A stretch of DNA of 43,172 nucleotides from a virus (lineage: Duplodnaviria > Heunggongvirae > Uroviricota > Caudoviricetes): the IMG/VR virus record IMGVR_UViG_2675903609_000006. One strand, given 5' to 3'. Below, in pieces: positions 9,262 through 42,943 of this stretch. A program made the translations under genes and the position numbers. The first letter of the stretch is position 1. Each line of letters begins with the position of its first letter. Below the pieces are notes generated by a model. The model had not been told where the DNA came from, ran no database searches, and saw only the letters and a program-made list of their open reading frames with translations.

Positions 9262-10373
9262 CAGAACGGGTCCTCCTGTACTCTGGCTTTTTTCTTTTTC
9301 CGCGCGCCGGGGGCTTCGGGTTCAGGCAGATAAGCATCAGGCGGGCCGACACGGATTTCCGTCAGGGTGCCGTTCTGGTCCTGAGTAAACGTGACTTCCG
9401 AAACAAGCAGTTCGGTATTGTCGAAACCACAGACCGGATCAAAGACAATCACCCGCTGGTTGGGCTGCCACAGCGTACCGTTACCCTGTCGCCAGCCCTG
9501 CACCACATAGGTGGTTTCATCCGTCCGCGCCGCCCGTTGCCGGGCTTCAAAGTCAGCACGCGCAATACAGCCTGCCCCCGTAGCCTGCCCTGTCTGCCTG
9601 ATATACATCGGACGGTAACGGGCAATAAATGCGTCCTCTGTGCGGGCCCGCAGCGCGGTGGTGGTGGCCTCACCGAAATCATCGTCGTTTCCGGCACGCT
9701 GCCCCGCCACCTGGTAAACAGAAAATCGCTCCCGGATACTCTTCTCCGTATCGCAGGAAAGGATGTTTTCCCCGAGTACCAGCGCAGTATGTGCCCGCGT
9801 TGAGCCAATACCGCCAATCACCAGCCTGCCGTGCGGGTCGTCGTAAGCCAGTGCCTGCTGCTGACCGAGTATTTTGTTGATTACCTCAATCACCGTTTCA
9901 CCGTGATCAGGCTGAACATCAGGAATAACACCCGACGGCGCACCGCTGTTCACCACCTCAATGCCGAAAGGCGCAGCAAGCGCCTGCGCAATCTGTACCA
10001 GCGATCGTCCGTTAAACTGTGTCGGTTCGGCTGCACAGTCAATCAGGTCAGCGGTCAGACTGCGTCCGGCAATACCGGTGCTGACCGAACGGGCATCGTA
10101 ACGAACGGGCGTCGCCTCCACCCAGCCGGTGATCACCAGCTCATCACCAATCAGCACCTCCACTTTTGAACCGTTTTTAANNNNNNNNNNNNNNNNNNNN
10201 NNNNNNNNNNNNNNNNNNNNNNNNNNNNNNNNNNNNNNNNNNNNNNNNNNNNNNNNNNNNNNNNNNNNNNNNNNNNNNNNNNNNNNNNNNNNNNNNNNNN
10301 NNNNNNNNNNNNNNNNNNNNNNNNNNNNNNNNNNNNNNNCGCACCGATGTCCAGCCATTCCACTCCCGGCCAT
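9261..10373 (-). CDS. Baseplate hub (phage late control D / Mu P-like); 5' part interrupted by an N-run
   Basis: Position between the spike and DNA-circularisation genes; N-run 10181-10339 lies inside, so the start is uncertain. Confidence 0.55.
   Translation of the reverse strand: MAGSGMAGHRCXXXXXXXXXXXXXXXXXXXXXXXXXXXXXXXXXXXXXXXXXXXXXXXXXXXXXXKNGSKVEVLIGDELVITGWVEATPVRYDARSVSTGIAGRSLTADLIDCAAEPTQFNGRSLVQIAQALAAPFGIEVVNSGAPSGVIPDVQPDHGETVIEVINKILGQQQALAYDDPHGRLVIGGIGSTRAHTALVLGENILSCDTEKSIRERFSVYQVAGQRAGNDDDFGEATTTALRARTEDAFIARYRPMYIRQTGQATGAGCIARADFEARQRAARTDETTYVVQGWRQGNGTLWQPNQRVIVFDPVCGFDNTELLVSEVTFTQDQNGTLTEIRVGPPDAYLPEPEAPGARKKKKARVQEDPF
10181..10339. other. Run of N (159 nt) - gap or masked sequence
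   Basis: Literal n characters. Confidence 1.
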
Positions 10374-30908: not shown

Positions 30909-31304
30909 TTACCGAGTTGCTAATTTGCAACTCGCTTTTTCGTACTTACTGATAGTGATCTCGACCTTCCCCTCCGGGATAACCGGTCCCCACTCCACCA
31001 GCATTCTTTTCACCTGACTGTCGTCTTCCCACACACCCGCGTGGGTCAGGGCGTCAAACAGCGCCTTGTTATAGTTGTCCAGATCGCGGATCCGGTTATC
31101 CGGAGGAAACAAAACGATCTCCACTGAAGCAGGTGCCGACGTTGGTTTCGGCAGACGACGTAACTGCTCAACTATTGCTGCGCACGCCGCGCTCTGGAAT
31201 TTTCACCCCGCCGCGCTTATCAGGCTCTTACCAGCAAACGCCCCTTTGTTGGGGTGTCGCCAGTACGTGTTCACGCTGGGCGGAAAAGGAAGGATCGGCT
31301 TCAT
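30909..31304 (-). pseudogene. rusA: RusA-like Holliday junction resolvase with in-frame TGA
   Basis: ATG at 31304 encodes MKPILPFPPSVNTYWRHPNKG..., then a TGA at 31203-31205; the same frame continues into the ORF-track ORF 30909-31124 (RDLDN...FDALT...WEDDSQV). Confidence 0.55.
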
Positions 31305-31627
31305 ACTTTCAGGCCCCTCTCATGTAACCAGTGGGCTGCACGCAGCCTGGCGTTTTCCTCACCGGCAAGCAGTGAGCGGATAATCCCGACCGCCTCGCTG
31401 TCGTCGTCCTTCACCACGGTATGAAGCGTGATCCCCCGGGCCACACCACGCTTTATCGTGATGACGCCTTTTTTCTCCAGTGCGCGAAGATGCTCCACCG
31501 CTGCATTCACCGAACGGTATCCCAGCATGGTTGCCACCTCCTGATTGGTTGGCGGGAAGCCACGTTCTTTCTGATAAGAAATCAGCATATCCAGCACCTG
31601 CTGCTGGCATTGAGTTAACGTCGTCAT
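31301..31627 (-). CDS. LexA-type winged-helix DNA-binding protein without a peptidase domain
   Basis: GFPPTNQEVATMLGYRSVNAAVEHLRALEKKGVITIKRGVARGI resembles the LexA N-terminal domain; start taken at the internal Met overlapping the upstream stop. Confidence 0.5.
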   Translation of the reverse strand: MTTLTQCQQQVLDMLISYQKERGFPPTNQEVATMLGYRSVNAAVEHLRALEKKGVITIKRGVARGITLHTVVKDDDSEAVGIIRSLLAGEENARLRAAHWLHERGLKV

Positions 31628-32121
31628 TACGCCCCCACGTAATTCCCTGACAGATACCACTCATCACTCGATACAGCGCGCTTGCTGCTTTTCCGTAAAC
31701 ACTGCTCACGACGCGCCAGAAAATTGTTTCGTTCTGGCTGGGAGTGGCTTTCACGGAATGCCGCCATCCACACCGTTGCAGCACGACGGTATAAGCCCCT
31801 GGACTCCAGTTCTTCAGCCTGGCGGGTCAGGCACAAAATCTCCCGCGGGTCGTTAGTGCCGACATAGAAATTGCGCACAGGTCTGGTTTCACGAACTGGT
31901 TGCGGTTCCGCCTCCTGCGCTCTCTCAGTCAGGCGCGGGAAATGTCTGCGTGTATCCCCTTCACAACGGTGAGCCACACGCCCACTCTGACGTAACTTGC
32001 TTGCTGACTGCAGAACGCGCTGCCGTGAGTAACCTGCAAAAGCATCCGCAATGTCTCCGGAAGTACACCCCGGATGGGCTTCAATGTATTTCTGAACTTC
32101 ATTCAAAAGACTCATGATCAC
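31627..32121 (-). CDS. PerC-like regulator (putative)
   Basis: C-terminal motif LESRGLYRRAATVWMAAF resembles the recalled PerC-family signature. Confidence 0.4.
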   Translation of the reverse strand: MIMSLLNEVQKYIEAHPGCTSGDIADAFAGYSRQRVLQSASKLRQSGRVAHRCEGDTRRHFPRLTERAQEAEPQPVRETRPVRNFYVGTNDPREILCLTRQAEELESRGLYRRAATVWMAAFRESHSQPERNNFLARREQCLRKSSKRAVSSDEWYLSGNYVGA

Positions 32122-33059
32122 CCCCTGAATCCTGCCGGGATCTGGCTGTAGTCCACGTTGTCGTAACTGGCTTTGAAGTACGGGTCTTCGCGTTTTTCTG
32201 TGTACGTGCTGACGGACGGCGATAAGCGCAGGGAAAGCTCATCCCATTTTTCCCGCAGCTTCGACGGGCTGAGCACGTTACGGCACCAGAACGGATCGCG
32301 GCTGACGCGGCTGTACATCTCGCAGATTTGTTTGTGAGTACGACCATCCTGCACACACATCAGGCGAATTTCGTTTGCCCAGGCTGTCCAGTTCGGTTCT
32401 TTGGGACGAACCACCTCGCCGTCACATTCGGCGGCCTGCTCGTACAGGGCGATGATTTTTTTCCAGAGCCACTGTGCGCAGGTCAAATCATCCTGCGTTC
32501 CCCACTGGCGCTTTTTAGGGCTGAATACAACCGCATCAGGATGGCGAGTTAAAAACTCCTGTTCAGCCGTCTGCGTGTCCGGTTGCGAAGCGTCCGGACG
32601 AGAAGTTTTTTTATCTGACGGATCATGTTTTGATTTTACTGACGGATCCCCGCCAGATTCTGACGGGTGAAAACCCGCTTTTTTGCCAGATTTCGACGCA
32701 TCAAATTTTGACGGGTCAGATTTTGATGCGTCAGATTTTGACGGGTCAGAATCTGACAGTTGAGAAAATGCCGCTGCCTGAAGCTTCGCAACGTTAAGCT
32801 GATAAACATTCGACGCATTGCGGTTACCCTGGCGACGCGCCTTACGCGTTAACCAGCCTTCTGCTTCCAGCCGTGCGATAGCCGTTCTGACGGTACTCAT
32901 CCCCGCGCCAATCTGACGGGCAATGGTTTCAATTGATGGCCAGCACACACCTTCGTCATTACTGAAATCAGCCAGGCGGGCCATAATTGCCACGCTGGAT
33001 AATTTCATGCCTGACGCTGCGCAACCATCCCATACATAGCCGGTTAATTTAGTGCTCAT
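32118..33059 (-). CDS. Replication initiator (O-like) with internal origin iterons
   Basis: N-terminal HTH, a central repetitive linker (SDSDPSKSDASKSDPSKFDASKSG) encoded by the iteron array, and a C-terminal domain. Confidence 0.6.
   Translation of the reverse strand: MSTKLTGYVWDGCAASGMKLSSVAIMARLADFSNDEGVCWPSIETIARQIGAGMSTVRTAIARLEAEGWLTRKARRQGNRNASNVYQLNVAKLQAAAFSQLSDSDPSKSDASKSDPSKFDASKSGKKAGFHPSESGGDPSVKSKHDPSDKKTSRPDASQPDTQTAEQEFLTRHPDAVVFSPKKRQWGTQDDLTCAQWLWKKIIALYEQAAECDGEVVRPKEPNWTAWANEIRLMCVQDGRTHKQICEMYSRVSRDPFWCRNVLSPSKLREKWDELSLRLSPSVSTYTEKREDPYFKASYDNVDYSQIPAGFRG
32611..32762. repeat. Iteron array (about eight ~15-bp direct repeats, consensus AGATTTTGACGGGTC) - candidate replication origin
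   Basis: Four contiguous 15-bp units at 32703-32762 plus degenerate copies upstream, all inside the initiator gene. Confidence 0.6.
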
Positions 33060-33407
33060 GACCGACCTCTATTTCCCTGAATTTACGACGAAACTGTTCG
33101 AGCGGGCTGAAGCACTCATGCTCATAGCCTTCACGGAGGTAGATAACCCGTTGTGTTTCCGGCTCCCAACGAATGACTCTGACGGGCACTCCGTAGTGAT
33201 CTTTGAACCAGCGATTAACTTGTCGCAAAGGACTGTCTCCTTCTGCCGGTTGAAATCCCCCACAGCCCACTCTGCAAAGCTGTGGGTTACAATTTCCCTG
33301 TCACCTGGTACATTCACTGCATAGCAATACTCCACCTTCGCTTTTCCACCCGGTACAGGAAGCGCAATCAGTTGCGAGCGACGGTAGTGTGTTGTTAAAC
33401 TGTTCAT
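33049..33407 (-). CDS. Hypothetical protein, reading frame ambiguous
   Basis: Two overlapping ORFs (33069-33407 and 33049-33270) in different frames each look plausible; the longer fits the gene array positionally. Confidence 0.3.
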
Positions 33408-33967
33408 GCGTTAGTTTCTCCACAGTCACGACACGCCACGGCGCCCGGAGCTGCACACTCGCGGGCGTCATTACTTTCTGAAATGCAAAAAATTTTGTAG
33501 ACCAGTGCTGCATGCTCCTGCAGCTTCGAAATTGAGAGGTACAGCTCGTCGTTAATTGCTGTCTTCTCATGCGGTTCCACTACACCGTCTTCGATTGCTG
33601 AACGAATCTGTTTTGAATAACTGCCGATCTGTTCAATGACTTCCAGCAGACGCTGGTTAATATCGGCGTTGTCCACATCCTCGACGTCAGGAAGAGACAC
33701 AAAGACGCCATTTGCAGACTGCGCCACAGCGTCAGCAATGAAGTGAGTTCCACCAGCACGTTGCAAAATCATTGCCCATCCCAGCGGGAAAATCTGATCG
33801 CCATCGGCACGAAGGCGGTTAAATAATGCGTTCTCTGTTACATCCAGCCAGTCAGCTGCTTCAGCGTAACCACCCGGCAACTTTGCGATAGTTTTTCTGA
33901 CAGCTTTCACGTACCACTCAGGCTGTTTTTCTACTTTCCAGTGATGCTTACCCACGGTTAGCCTCAT
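33404..33967 (-). CDS. CII-like regulatory protein (putative)
   Basis: 187 aa immediately downstream of cro; tentative family resemblance only. Confidence 0.4.
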
Positions 33968-33998
33968 CGTTCTGTGGTTAAAAATTGAAAGTGTTCTG

Positions 33999-34199
33999 CT
34001 AATCTTTCGGATAGATATCCGGTCTTAAGTCAGATTTCGTAATTGCACCTGACGTGCATTGCTCAAGTTTTTTAGCCAGCACAAAACTGGCTTTTTTATA
34101 GCCATTGAAAACCAGCCGTAAGTAGCCAGGTGTTGAGCCAACTTTTCCGGCCAACTCGCCCTGCTGTTCTTTGGTTAAAGAGTCCCAATACGCTTTCAT
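33999..34199 (-). CDS. cro: Cro-like repressor (Cro/YdaS-type HTH)
   Basis: Divergent from the repressor gene; start taken at MKAYWDS because the ORF-track start overlaps an operator. Confidence 0.7.
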   Translation of the reverse strand: MKAYWDSLTKEQQGELAGKVGSTPGYLRLVFNGYKKASFVLAKKLEQCTSGAITKSDLRPDIYPKD

Positions 34200-34204
34200 A
34201 CAAT

Positions 34205-34274
34205 ATGTACCTCCGGTGTACATATTACATGATTAAAATGAACCTTCAAGATACTTGTACCTTAACGGTACAAG
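34205..34274. promoter_or_regulatory. Divergent immunity promoter region with two palindromic operators
   Basis: ATGTAC-CTCCGGT-GTACAT (34205-34223) and CTTGTACC-TTAA-CGGTACAAG (34254-34274) between cro and the repressor gene. Confidence 0.55.
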
Positions 34275-34289
34275 GGTTTTAATTTCGTT

Positions 34290-34964
34290 ATGAAAACAAT
34301 CCATGACATCCGGCGGTCTAACGCCAGAAAACTGAGAGATGGTGTTGGCGGGAATTCTTCCTTTGCCACTATGATTGATCGCGAGCCAACCCAGACCAGC
34401 AGGTTTATGGGAGATGGTGCTACTAAAAATATCGGTGACAGCATGGCACGACACATCGAAAAATGTTTCGACCTGCCTGTTGGATGGCTCGATCAAGAAC
34501 ACCAGACAACGAACATCACAAAAAAACCTGATGTTTCAATCACTAATAAACAAATCACATTAGTCCCTGTCATATCATGGGTACAGGCCGGAGCATGGAA
34601 AGAAGTTGGATATTCTGAGGTTGATTTGAGCACAGCAGAAACGTATCCCTGCCCTGTACCCTGTGGGGAAATGACTTATATCTTGCGGGTGATAGGTGAT
34701 TCAATGATTGATGAGTACCGCCCGGGAGACATGATTTTTGTCGATCCTGAAGTACCAGCCTGCCACGGTGACGACGTTATTGCATTGATGCACGATACAG
34801 GTGAAACCACCTTCAAAAGGTTGATAGAAGATGGGACACAGCGTTATCTCAAAGCGTTAAACCCAAACTGGCCTGAGCCTTACATTAAGATCAACGGTAA
34901 TTGCTCTATAATTGGAACTGTGATTTTCTCAGGAAAACCAAGAAGATACAAAATCAAAGCCTAA
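34290..34964 (+). CDS. cI: CI-type repressor with S24 (LexA-like) autopeptidase domain
   Basis: C-terminal domain with VIGDSM nucleophile and downstream Lys (FKRL), similar to recalled P22 C2. Confidence 0.85.
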   Translation: MKTIHDIRRSNARKLRDGVGGNSSFATMIDREPTQTSRFMGDGATKNIGDSMARHIEKCFDLPVGWLDQEHQTTNITKKPDVSITNKQITLVPVISWVQAGAWKEVGYSEVDLSTAETYPCPVPCGEMTYILRVIGDSMIDEYRPGDMIFVDPEVPACHGDDVIALMHDTGETTFKRLIEDGTQRYLKALNPNWPEPYIKINGNCSIIGTVIFSGKPRRYKIKA

Positions 34965-40448: not shown

Positions 40449-41765
40449 TTACGCACGAATGGTGTAATCACCAATGCCGATCCACTTGTAAGTGGTCAGT
40501 GCTTCCAGCCCCATTGGGCCACGCGCGTGGAGTTTTTGTGTGCTTACCGCCACTTCCGCACCCAGACCAAACTGGCCGCCGTCGGTAAAACGCGTAGAGG
40601 CGTTAACGTAAACAGCGGACGAATCCACTTCGTTAACAAAACGCTGGGCGTTGCGCATATCGCGGGTCAGGATCGCATCGGAGTGTTGTGTGCCGTGTTC
40701 ACGAATATGGGCGATGGCATCGTCAAGATCGCTGACGATTTTGACGTTCAAATCTAATGACAGAAACTCATCGTCATACTCTTCGGCTTTAACCGCCACC
40801 ACCTTCGCAGGGCCTGCCTGCAACTGTGTCAGCGCAGCTGCATCTGCGTGTAATGTCACGCCGCTTTCCGCCATTTGTTTGCTTAATGCGGGCAGGAAGC
40901 TATCGGCGATGTTTTTATTCACCAGCAACGTTTCAACCGTATTACATGTGCTCGGACGCTGAGTTTTCGCGTTGACGATCACTTTTAATGCTTCAGCGAT
41001 CTCTGCACTTTCATCAACGTAAATATGGCATACGCCTATACCACCTGTGATCACCGGGATTGTCGACTGTTCACGGCACAGTTTATGCAAACCAGCGCCA
41101 CCACGCGGGATCAGCATGTCGATGTATTTATCCATACGCAGCATTTCACTGACCAGCGCACGGTCAGGATTATCAATCGCCTGCACGGCACCCGCCGGTA
41201 AGCCACAGGATTTCAGGGCGTCCTGAATCACCGCCACCGTTGCCGCGTTAGTGCGACAGGTTTCTTTACCACCACGCAGGATCACCGCATTACCGGTTTT
41301 CAGGCACAGCGAAGCGACATCAACCGTCACGTTCGGGCGCGCTTCATAAATCACGCCAATAACCCCCAGCGGTACGCGACGACGCTCAAGACGCAGGCCG
41401 CTGTCCAGTACGCCGCCATCGANNNNNNNNNNNNNNNNNNNNNNNNNNNNNNNNNNNNNNNNNNNNNNNNNNNNNNNNNNNNNNNNNNNNNNNNNNNNNN
41501 NNNNNNNNNNNNNNNNNNNNNNNNNNNNNNNNNNNNNNNNNNNNNNNNNNNNNNNNNNNNNNNNNNNNNNNNNNNNNNNNNNNNNNNNNNNNNNNNNNNN
41601 NNNNNNNNNNNNNNNNNNNNNNNNNNNNNNNNNNNNNNNNNNNNNNNNNNNNNNNNNNNNNNNNNNNNNNNNNNNNNNNNNNNNNNNNNNNNNNNNNNNN
41701 NNNNNNNAGAGTTGCGCTAATTTATACGAGGCTTGCTTCGCGGCAATGCCCATTTGTTCCAGCAT
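40449..41765 (-). CDS. proA: Gamma-glutamyl phosphate reductase (interrupted by an N-run)
   Basis: N-terminus [19 protein letters not shown] and C-terminal conserved region; N-run 41423-41707 inside. Confidence 0.9.
41423..41707. other. Run of N (285 nt) - gap or masked sequence
   Basis: Literal n characters. Confidence 1.
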
Positions 41766-41776
41766 CGGCCAGCTCC

Positions 41777-42943
41777 TTAACGGGTAATCATGTCATCACG
41801 GTGAACGGCAACCGGGCCGTATTCATATCCCAGTATTGCATCAATTTCTTGCGAGTGGTGTCCGGCAATACGGCGTAATGCATCGCTGTTGTAACGACTG
41901 ACACCGTGGGCGATATCGCGACCTTCGAGGTTGCAAATGCGGATGACTTCACCACGCGAGAAATTGCCAGTAACGCTTTTAATGCCTTTCGGCAACAGGG
42001 AGCTGCCGCGTTCCAGAATGGCGGCCGTNNNNNNNNNNNNNNNNNNNNNNNNNNNNNNNNNNNNNNNNNNNNNNNNNNNNNNNNNNNNNNNNNNNNNNNN
42101 NNNNNNNNNNNNNNNNNNNNNNNNNNNNNNNNNNNNNNNNNNNNNNNNNNNNNNNNNNNNNNNNNNNNCCTGGGCATGGAACAGCGTACCGACGGAAATG
42201 CCTTCCATCACATCACCAATAACGCCCGGCTTGCTGCCCGCGGCAATAATGGTGTCGATACCCGCACGGCAAGCCACGTCAGCGGCCTGCAATTTAGTAC
42301 TCATGCCGCCAGTTCCGAGGCCTGAAACGCTGTCACCGGCAATCGCGCGCAGTGCGTCATCAATGCCGTAAACATCTTTAATCAGTTCTGCCTGCGGATT
42401 TCTGCGCGGATCAGCGGTATACAAACCTTTTTGATCGGTCAGCAGCAACAGTTTATCGGCACCCGCCAGAATCGCCGCCAGCGCAGAAAGGTTATCGTTA
42501 TCGCCGACCTTAATCTCTGCCGTAGCGACAGCATCGTTCTCATTGATTACCGGAACGATATTGTTATCGAGCAACGCACGCAGGGTGTCGCGGGCGTTCA
42601 GGAAGCGTTCACGGTCTTCCATATCAGCACGGGTCAGCAGCATTTGCCCGACGTGAATGCCATAAATCGAAAACAGCTGTTCCCACAGTTGAATCAGTCG
42701 ACTCTGCCCTACCGCCGCCAGCAGTTGTTTCGAGGCGATAGTCGCTGGCAGTTCCGGGTAACCCAGGTGCTCACGTCCGGCGGCGATCGCGCCCGACGTC
42801 ACAATAACAATCCGATGCCCGGCGGCATGTAACTGCGCGCACTGGCGAACAAGTTCAACGATATGGGCACGGTTCAGACGGCGCGATCCGCCTGTTAGCA
42901 CACTGGTGCCGAGTTTTACCACCAGCGTCTGGCTGTCACTCAT
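41777..42943 (-). CDS. proB: Glutamate 5-kinase (interrupted by an N-run)
   Basis: Start at [19 protein letters not shown] (ATG at 42943), PUA-domain C-terminus ending DDMITR; N-run 42029-42168 inside. Confidence 0.9.
42029..42168. other. Run of N (140 nt) - gap or masked sequence
   Basis: Literal n characters. Confidence 1.

Follow-up and report, generated by a model that had tools for sequence, protein, structure and literature searches.

A probable lambda-type replication origin inside the initiator gene of Shigella phage SfIV, and a possible DnaT-like route to the host helicase

Shigella phage SfIV carries, in the middle of gene 41, which encodes its O-like replication initiator (gp41), an array of short dyad-symmetric repeats that is probably the replication origin of SfIV-type phages. 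We analysed the array in a stretch of 43,172 nucleotides of viral DNA (IMG/VR record IMGVR_UViG_2675903609_000006; the window), of which the 3 kb searched, 31300-34300, is SfIV in reverse orientation at 100% identity to KC814930 / NC_022749. Selection acts on the DNA of the repeats, since their synonymous sites are near-frozen, their motif is confined to the linker of the initiator, a copy of the motif is kept in a second reading frame and the type of repeat is linked to the type of N-terminal domain. Iterons inside the initiator gene are textbook knowledge for phages lambda, P22 and L and for the Stx phages, and by sequence comparison and analogy the array is likely to be a lambda-type origin that serves a different family of initiator heads. 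What is probably new is the variant, in which the initiator belongs to a new family and helicase recruitment would run via a DnaT-like tail.

The repeat array within gene 41

The earlier note on this DNA, made from the letters alone, had described about eight direct repeats of about 15 bp, with four contiguous units at 32703-32762. Repeats are indeed found at that place, but they comprise six full 13-bp dyads and two distal copies that are only half-sites, and the contiguous block is one of five units at 32685-32757 (Table 1). On the plus strand the repeat unit consists of a 13-bp imperfect palindrome, RTCAGAWTYTGAY, and a 2-bp variable spacer; in one copy, GTCAGAATCTGAC at 32745-32757, the palindrome is perfect. 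Tandem Repeats Finder places the block at 32687-32750 with a period of 15, 4.3 copies and 81% matches, a period of 30 also being reported, and a repeat search returned the same family as the tandem block together with more distant copies at 32613-32668. The half-site sequences, TCTGACGGATC at 32614-32624 and CTGACGGATC at 32639-32648, are 24 bp apart, and the half-site GATCCGTCAG / GATCCATCAG is conserved in homologues. The array as a whole, six full units and two half-sites, occupies 32607-32757 of a gene that extends from 32118 to 33059. The repeats encode the peptide SDSDPSKSDASKSDPSKFDASKS..., which is rich in Ser, Asp and Lys and repetitive, as had been noted before.

Within the window the degenerate core TYTGAYGSRTC occurs six times, always inside 32614-32747, against an expectation of 0.35, and none of 100 shuffles reached six. 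When at most one mismatch is allowed, TCARAWTCTGA gives 13 matches against 3.05 expected, ten of them inside 32653-32756. By these core and degenerate-motif counts, no further cluster of the SfIV motif was found in the 43-kb window.

The half-site TCTGACGG is found twice more, at 32881-32893 and 32907-32919, in the part of the gene that encodes the helix-turn-helix and in another reading frame; these could be chance matches or auxiliary sites. A scan of gene 41 for promoters and terminators gave nothing meaningful except one weak antisense hairpin, the terminator-like CGGGTGAAAACCCG followed by a T-run at 32664-32677 (plus strand, antisense to gene 41), which is located between the tandem block and the distal units and whose stem is not conserved in homologues.

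Selection on the DNA of the repeats

Conservation was followed in 80 loci, drawn from bacterial assemblies with one genome per species and encoding N-domains 62-100% identical to that of gp41, and the 75 of these with complete, non-identical genes formed the conservation sample (Enterobacterales). Three loci (L098, L125 and L129) are enterobacterial prophage initiators on contigs labelled Vagococcus, Chryseobacterium and Martelella, and these host labels are probably the result of assembly contamination. All 75 genes carry SD-x-SK-type repeats followed by ...F(H/D)P(S/P)ESGGDPSV...DPS, and 364 repeat units were taken from them, chosen by peptide pattern only.

Codon choice within these units is strikingly uniform. 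Lysine is encoded as AAA in 226 cases and as AAG in two, compared to 603 and 368 in the rest of the same genes, while serine is TCA or TCT in 90% of cases within the units and in 25% elsewhere in the same genes. The position matrix of the 364 units reads TCA-R-A-W-TCT-GA-Y plus three variable bases (family matrix RTCARAWTCTGAY), the variable positions being the 2-3 nt spacer between dyads. The motif TCA[AG]A[AT]TCTGA has 174 coding-strand and 64 opposite-strand occurrences in the initiator genes (69.6 kb), every one of them within codons 99-149, and four occurrences in 467 kb of flanking DNA.

Conservation of DNA is not limited to the tandem units. A non-tandem segment, TTTSACCCGTCAGAATCTGGnGGnGATCCGTCAGTAAA, keeps its synonymous sites from Shigella to Proteus and Providencia, and the consensus TTTSACCCGTCAGAATCTGG around the sixth iteron is 97-100% conserved, synonymous sites included. 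Taken over columns with a conserved amino acid, the core segment has a major-codon fraction of 0.88 as opposed to 0.53 over 53 N-domain columns, and the core-segment codons TTT for F, GAA for E, GAT for D and GTA for V stand at 100%. Stx2 phage KH16 and a Citrobacter locus (L163) have a further copy of the 18-nt motif in a second reading frame; this copy is translated as (L)TLQNLT, compared to DPSDSG in the usual frame. We conclude from these comparisons that the repeats are a DNA element overlapping coding sequence and not merely a repetitive peptide.

Repeat type follows the N-terminal domain

Three initiators with unrelated N-domains were compared, and each has repeats of another type. The orf39 product of SfV, whose N-domain is 31% identical, is encoded by a gene with about five GGTGCAGGAGATTCAC-type repeats positioned as in SfIV. 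Edwardsiella phage Edno5 has, at the equivalent position, three 24-bp repeats with the palindrome ATCCCAAAATTGGGAT that are reminiscent of lambda iterons, and the lambda O gene has its own four iterons, again at the equivalent position, just upstream of the C-domain and ahead of an A-rich stretch. The converse also holds, in that an N-domain of the SfIV type keeps its repeats whichever of at least three types of C-terminal half it is joined to (lambda-O-like, SfV-type or Phg_2220_C). Where all N-domains are 100% identical, in a set of IMG/VR genes, the products are 308, 313, 318 or 323 amino acids long, and copy number steps by whole 15-bp units. Such covariation of repeat and N-domain is the pattern classically used for assigning the origins of lambdoid phages, and the phage L paper made the same origin inference for lambda O, P22 gene 18 and L gene 18 (PMC8022706).

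An O relative with a different DNA-binding head

The product of gene 41 is a member of PHROG 391, 'replication initiation O-like' (E 1.6e-135, full-length profile match), and the repeats lie in its central linker, as the earlier note had proposed. In an AlphaFold2 model built on 49 homologues, residues 102-161 (window 32577-32756) are the sole long disordered segment, which coincides with the repeat array. Ahead of this linker, Pfam HTH_36 (PF13730) matches residues 23-70 (E 4.2e-11), the model shows helices and a wing (predicted local distance difference test scores, pLDDT, of 67-87), and Foldseek matches the N-domain to dimeric MarR/ArsR winged-helix proteins. Phage_rep_O (PF04492) gave no match in gp41, which has HTH_36 instead, and lambda O matches PF04492 only.

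The C-terminal half is another matter. BLASTP aligns gp41 with lambda O at 1e-25, with a clear match of residues of about 171-277 to residues of about 176-270 of O, and by tblastn the C-domain is 34.9% identical to that of lambda O (E 4e-18). It is modelled as helical, with a pLDDT of 86-97 over most of its length and 70-71 in two blocks of ten residues, followed by a low-confidence tail. No Pfam or NCBIfam family matched the C-domain; phmmer against PDB returned weak winged-helix matches only, and Foldseek on the gp41 model returned matches to the N-domain only. In its C-terminal half gp41 is thus a true relative of O, to which a different DNA-binding head is joined. The parallel with lambda drawn in the earlier note is supported, the repeats lying in the inter-domain linker as the lambda iterons do.

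A candidate unwinding element

An AT-rich element next to the iterons had been put forward as something to look for. A candidate for such an element is present at 32600-32639, the least stable 40-bp window of gene 41 by nearest-neighbour calculation (-1.187 kcal/step; the lambda equivalent has -1.11). Like the AT-rich region of lambda it borders the array on the promoter-distal side, which counts for the origin reading. Its modest strength counts against that reading: A+T is 70% over 40 bp, and in the window as a whole the stretch ranks no better than among the least stable 3.3%. No DnaA box was found within 3 kb of the array, the only TTWTNCACA sites of the window being at 1527 and 29141.

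Proposed mechanism and alternative explanations

We propose that the array at 32607-32757 serves, with good probability, as the origin of SfIV-type phages in the following way. By analogy with the O/ori system of lambda and with gene 18 of P22 and of phage L, the N-terminal winged-helix domain of gp41 would bind the dyads as a dimer, a nucleoprotein complex would be assembled there, the A-rich 40 bp at 32600-32639 or the AT-rich centres of the sites would melt, and the host DnaB helicase would then be loaded. In the least certain step, suggested by comparative genomics, the tail ...SQIPAGFRG would link the origin-bound initiator to the host primosome (DnaB-DnaC or PriA).

Besides the modest AT-rich element, several points count against this proposal. 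We infer both gp41 binding to the repeats and origin firing for the whole family, from sequence and by analogy. The 15-bp packing of the sites leaves scant room for one winged-helix dimer per site, and the out-of-frame copy of the motif is limited to one lineage (KH16 and L163). Slippage and gene conversion homogenise tandem repeats and may add to codon uniformity within one gene; they do not account for the uniformity across 75 species or for the conserved non-tandem core.

Conservation at the DNA level shows function and not which function, and the sites might be regulatory, with gp41 acting as a roadblock that autoregulates early-right transcription, or with the PerC-like or LexA-DBD-like protein (named for the LexA DNA-binding domain) as the ligand, and with the origin elsewhere. 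Plasmid iterons also serve autoregulation and copy control, and the flank of the array offers only a weak AT-rich element. We nevertheless consider this unlikely, given that the initiator gene, the position in the linker, the distal AT-rich flank and the lambda-O C-domain make up the arrangement of lambda ori, that the motif has no second cluster in the window, and that many loci keep the repeats without the downstream regulators. It is very unlikely that the repeats are a by-product of a low-complexity linker changing by replication slippage, with no function in the DNA. The disorder of the region in the AlphaFold2 model, the polymorphic copy number and the Ser/Asp/Lys-rich peptide would all suit such an origin of the repeats; what they leave standing is that synonymous sites are near-invariant over 75 species and randomised in the adjacent structured domain (0.88 compared to 0.53; AAA 226 and AAG 2), that KH16 and L163 retain the DNA motif in another frame, that each unit has dyad symmetry and that the non-tandem core segment is conserved too.

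The segment sits exactly where N-domains join at least three unrelated C-domain types, and its conservation could in principle reflect a module boundary, that is, sequence kept for homologous recombination between the N- and C-terminal modules of mosaic initiators. This explanation is highly improbable, as it accounts neither for dyad symmetry and tandem multiplication nor for the different repeats that go with unrelated N-domains, and the actual mosaic joint between SfIV and SfV is near the 3' end of the gene, outside the linker. Least probable of all is that an overlapping reading frame or mRNA structure imposes the synonymous constraint. SfIV does have alternative frames without stops (plus strand, 32630-32797; minus strand, 32636-32818), and 31 of the 75 genes keep one antisense frame open throughout; yet no alternative frame is open in all 75, four of the five are never fully open, openness follows from repeat composition, and any overlapping product would be altered by copy-number variation. 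The weak hairpin at 32664-32677 is, as stated, not conserved, and neither an overlapping product nor conserved covarying RNA pairs came to light in this analysis.

Helicase recruitment and the DnaT-like tail

No helicase, primase or loader appears in the annotation of SfIV, and tblastn (E<0.01) of E. coli DnaB, DnaC and DnaT and of the P proteins of lambda and Edno5 gave no match in the window. The observation that no helicase-loader gene is adjacent to gene 41 can accordingly be extended from its neighbours to the whole phage, as far as annotation and tblastn reach. The suggestion that helicase recruitment may differ from that of lambda was justified by this absence, and the C-terminus of gp41 gives it a specific form: with no homologue of P, DnaC or DnaB of its own, SfIV would depend for helicase delivery on the C-terminal tail of the initiator.

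This tail resembles that of the host primosomal protein DnaT. gp41 ends VDYSQIPAGFRG and E. coli DnaT ends EPDSQIPPGFRG, and the last nine residues of gp41, SQIPAGFRG, are identical to the DnaT C-terminus at eight of nine positions. In DnaT itself the tail PDxxIPxGFRG, sometimes with AK added, is found in nearly all of about 115 intact orthologues. Among 49 gp41 homologues G310, F311 and R312 are invariant and the proline nearly so, while the preceding 20 or so residues vary freely; the DnaT-like tail stands at the end of 76 of 94 close homologues of normal length, and none of the 2368 other open reading frames of the loci ends in GFR[GST]. We considered and rejected gp41 as a DnaT homologue, since profile-profile similarity is restricted to the tail: hhalign of gp41 against DnaT profiles aligns only the last 15 columns (E 7.6e-4, probability 25%), and the DnaT DNA-binding domain PF17948 gave no match in gp41 at E<=0.01. 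On present alignments, the likeness between gp41 and DnaT is that of a shared terminal motif and not of domain homology. Relatives of the Phg_2220_C type show longer similarity to DnaT, over some 20-80 residues (BLASTP 6e-08).

In support of a role in recruitment, the tail goes with the lack of a loader. When DnaB, DnaC or P homologues were sought within 3.5 kb downstream of the initiator, they were found at none of 42 loci with a GFRx tail and at seven of eight with other tails. Two of these seven encode P (with lambda-like or other tails), one encodes a DnaC-like protein (with a DDDFI end) and four encode both DnaC-like and DnaB-like proteins. One further initiator (L145), with the variant end GFRCD and classed outside the 42, likewise has no loader or helicase gene downstream. 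The contrast between tail and loader is seen inside each C-domain type: the C-domains of SfV and KH16 are 80% identical, and their tails differ, as does the presence of DnaC-like and DnaB-like genes, and the same holds for SfIV compared to Edno5 and lambda. As an observation in its own right, the initiator of a Serratia metagenome-assembled genome (L137), which is directly followed by a DnaC-like gene, ends ...TDDDFI, resembling the SSB C-terminal tip DDDIPF.

We take it as possible, though short of an even chance, that the host helicase is recruited through the DnaT-like tail of gp41. The adaptor role that the tail may have is our own inference from sequence comparison, and the following considerations weigh against it. 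The hhalign match is confined to the tail, with the values given above. A tail of the DnaT type is not the only way to do without a loader, since downstream of a class of 24 other initiators with a different C-terminus (L107, L109, L110, L128, L130, L132, L138, L141, L146-L154, L156-L160, L168 and L169) there is likewise no homologue of DnaB, DnaC or P; its members are 297-374 amino acids long, mostly 335-349, with the C-terminus ...W-x-x-I-W-(K/Q)..., and may use another host-recruitment tail. Moreover, the tail often accompanies the PerC-like gene and might bind the PerC-like protein instead. A PerC-like homologue is found at an offset of -3 or -6 in about 17 of the 42 loci with the DnaT tail, and in many E. 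coli genomes a segment made up of the final 76 bp of gene 41 and the PerC-like junction adjoins other initiator genes, so that tail and downstream PerC-like gene move as one module. As for DnaT itself, residues 154-179 contribute to cooperative single-stranded-DNA binding (PMC4132743), and cryo-electron microscopy work favours its N-terminal domain for DnaB/DnaC recruitment (PMC13377028).

With similar caution, we suggest that the tails of O-like initiators could be exchangeable 'address labels' for helicase delivery, the lambda type going with P, others with DnaC-like or DnaB-like proteins, and IPxGFRG operating without a loader via host DnaB-DnaC or PriA; we hold this to be a tentative idea that may well prove wrong. 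If it is true, the invariant DnaT C-terminus would be the contact by which the restart primosome hands over to DnaB-DnaC, and SfIV ori-gp41 would be a simple, sequence-targeted system for studying this hand-over. The loader-less design with a DnaT-like tail would also provide a handle on DnaB-DnaC recruitment downstream of DnaT, an open question in the 2026 preprimosome paper (PMC13377028).

Relation to known replication systems

The closest parallel is the ori/O system of lambda, together with O/ori of the Stx phages and gene 18 of P22 and L (PMC8022706), in which internally dyad-symmetric iterons in the middle of the initiator gene encode the inter-domain linker. As in lambda ori, an A-rich, less stable stretch is promoter-distal, and the gp41 C-domain is homologous to that of lambda O; as in the Stx phages, iteron number differs between relatives. 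The differences are nonetheless considerable. The N-domain is Phage_rep_O in lambda and HTH_36 in gp41, the SfIV sites are 13 bp at a 15-bp period compared to about 19-20 bp in lambda, the AT-rich element of SfIV is weaker, and SfIV is without P or any other loader or helicase gene. The initiators of lambda and Edno5 end ...DLTNTDWIYGV(D/Q)L, whereas the extreme C-terminus of gp41 is DnaT-like.

In Cellvibrionales and Oceanospirillales an O-like and a P-like gene have been domesticated as DopC and DopE, respectively (Brezellec et al., 2017, PMC5509034). DopC resembles gp41 in combining an HTH_36 N-domain with a DnaT C-terminal element, detected in that study by HHpred against PDB 2ru8 (PMC5509034). 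It differs in being chromosomal, without iterons, not an origin and always with a P-like gene behind it, while gp41 is a loader-less phage initiator with iterons that shares only the last 15 or so residues with DnaT. Compared to E. coli DnaT (primosomal protein i), which has PDxxIPxGFRG at its extreme C-terminus, gp41 is without the N-terminal oligomerisation domain and without a Pfam match to the DnaT DNA-binding domain, and is predicted to bind double-stranded DNA sequence-specifically.

Iteron plasmids such as F, R6K, pPS10 and pSC101 share tandem initiator-binding repeats, a winged-helix initiator and the use of host DnaB-DnaC without a plasmid loader, a combination that we predict for SfIV. 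Plasmid iterons, however, are located outside the rep gene and are usually accompanied by DnaA boxes, which SfIV does not have within 3 kb of the array, and the WH1-WH2 Rep proteins are unrelated in sequence to gp41. Finally, the 'Eru' regions of Stx phages share the HTH_36 protein family and the genome position downstream of cI/cro (PMC8951638). The 'Eru' papers classify regions only; they state that the replication proteins are uncharacterised and describe no origin or iterons (PMC8951638).

The papers on SfIV, Sf101 and 'Eru' mention neither an origin nor iterons, and the GenBank record of SfV has no origin annotated. For the SfII/SfIV/SfV group and for other HTH_36 initiators we found no description of an origin or iterons in the literature searched, although Allison et al. 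(2002; SfV genome) may mention the orf39 repeats. Nor did the literature searched connect a DnaT-like tail with the lack of a loader, and a search with the tail peptide likewise gave nothing relevant. Knowledge of origin and initiator identity helps to predict the replication competence of prophages and the incompatibility or immunity between co-resident prophages, and origin and initiator together constitute a small two-part replicon for vector building.

Distribution and gene neighbourhood

Full-length gene 41 is present in 1576 of 5426 complete E. coli genomes (29%), where it is annotated only as 'helix-turn-helix domain-containing protein', without an assigned origin. Its relatives are found in serotype-converting Shigella phages, and SfV-type genes in Stx2c phages; the names given in records are 'replication protein', 'primosomal protein' and 'DNA replication protein O'. 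On the minus strand, gene 41 is preceded by cI (divergent), cro, a CII/CP76-like gene and a small gene (YmfM-like/DUF4222), and is followed by a PerC-like gene whose start overlaps its stop, a LexA-DBD-like gene, a truncated rusA, KilA-N, DUF968/HNH and Q. Profile matches agree with the earlier assignment of the first two downstream genes as PerC-like and LexA-DBD-like. Coordinates are collected in Table 1.

Table 1. Positions in the window of gene 41, its protein domains, the repeat array and the adjoining gene
Feature	Position	Strand	Basis or remark
SfIV_41, replication initiator (O-like), 313 amino acids	32118-33059	minus	Open reading frame; 100% identity to KC814930 SfIV_41 'replication protein'
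N-terminal winged-helix DNA-binding domain, residues 1-101	32757-33059	minus	HTH_36 at residues 23-70; AlphaFold2
C-terminal domain, residues 162-280	32220-32576	minus	Homologous to lambda O C-terminal domain; BLASTP 1e-25
C-terminal tail DYSQIPAGFRG	32121-32153	minus	Matches host DnaT C-terminus PDSQIPPGFRG
Five tandem iterons, 15-bp period, dyad RTCAGAWTYTGAY + 2-bp spacer	32685-32757		Repeat searches, inverted-repeat pair, position matrix
Tandem units	32745-32757, 32730-32742, 32715-32727, 32700-32712, 32685-32697		
Sixth full iteron GCCAGATTCTGAC	32652-32664		Within the family's most conserved DNA segment
Two distal half-sites	32607-32619, 32631-32643 (span 32607-32643)		TCTGAC/CTGAC then GGATC
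Conserved core segment, coding strand TTTCACCCGTCAGAATCTGGCGGGGATCCGTCAGTAAAA	32634-32672		Major-codon fraction 0.88 across 72-75 genes
Candidate DNA-unwinding element, 40 bp, 70% A+T	32600-32639	coding strand A-rich	Nearest-neighbour stability
PerC-like gene (YfdN-like; winged-helix N-terminus + PerC domain)	31627-32121	minus	Starts 4 bp before gene 41 stop codon

Masked runs of N are present in the window at 10181-10339, 41423-41707 and 42029-42168. The RusA open reading frame (71 amino acids, 30909-31124, minus strand) matches only profile positions 77-123 of 124 and is, judged by this match, a 5'-truncated remnant. At the position of rusA, SfV and PhiR49_1 have a dam methylase gene and a complete rusA, and this comparison agrees with the statement of the SfIV paper that the methylase is absent.

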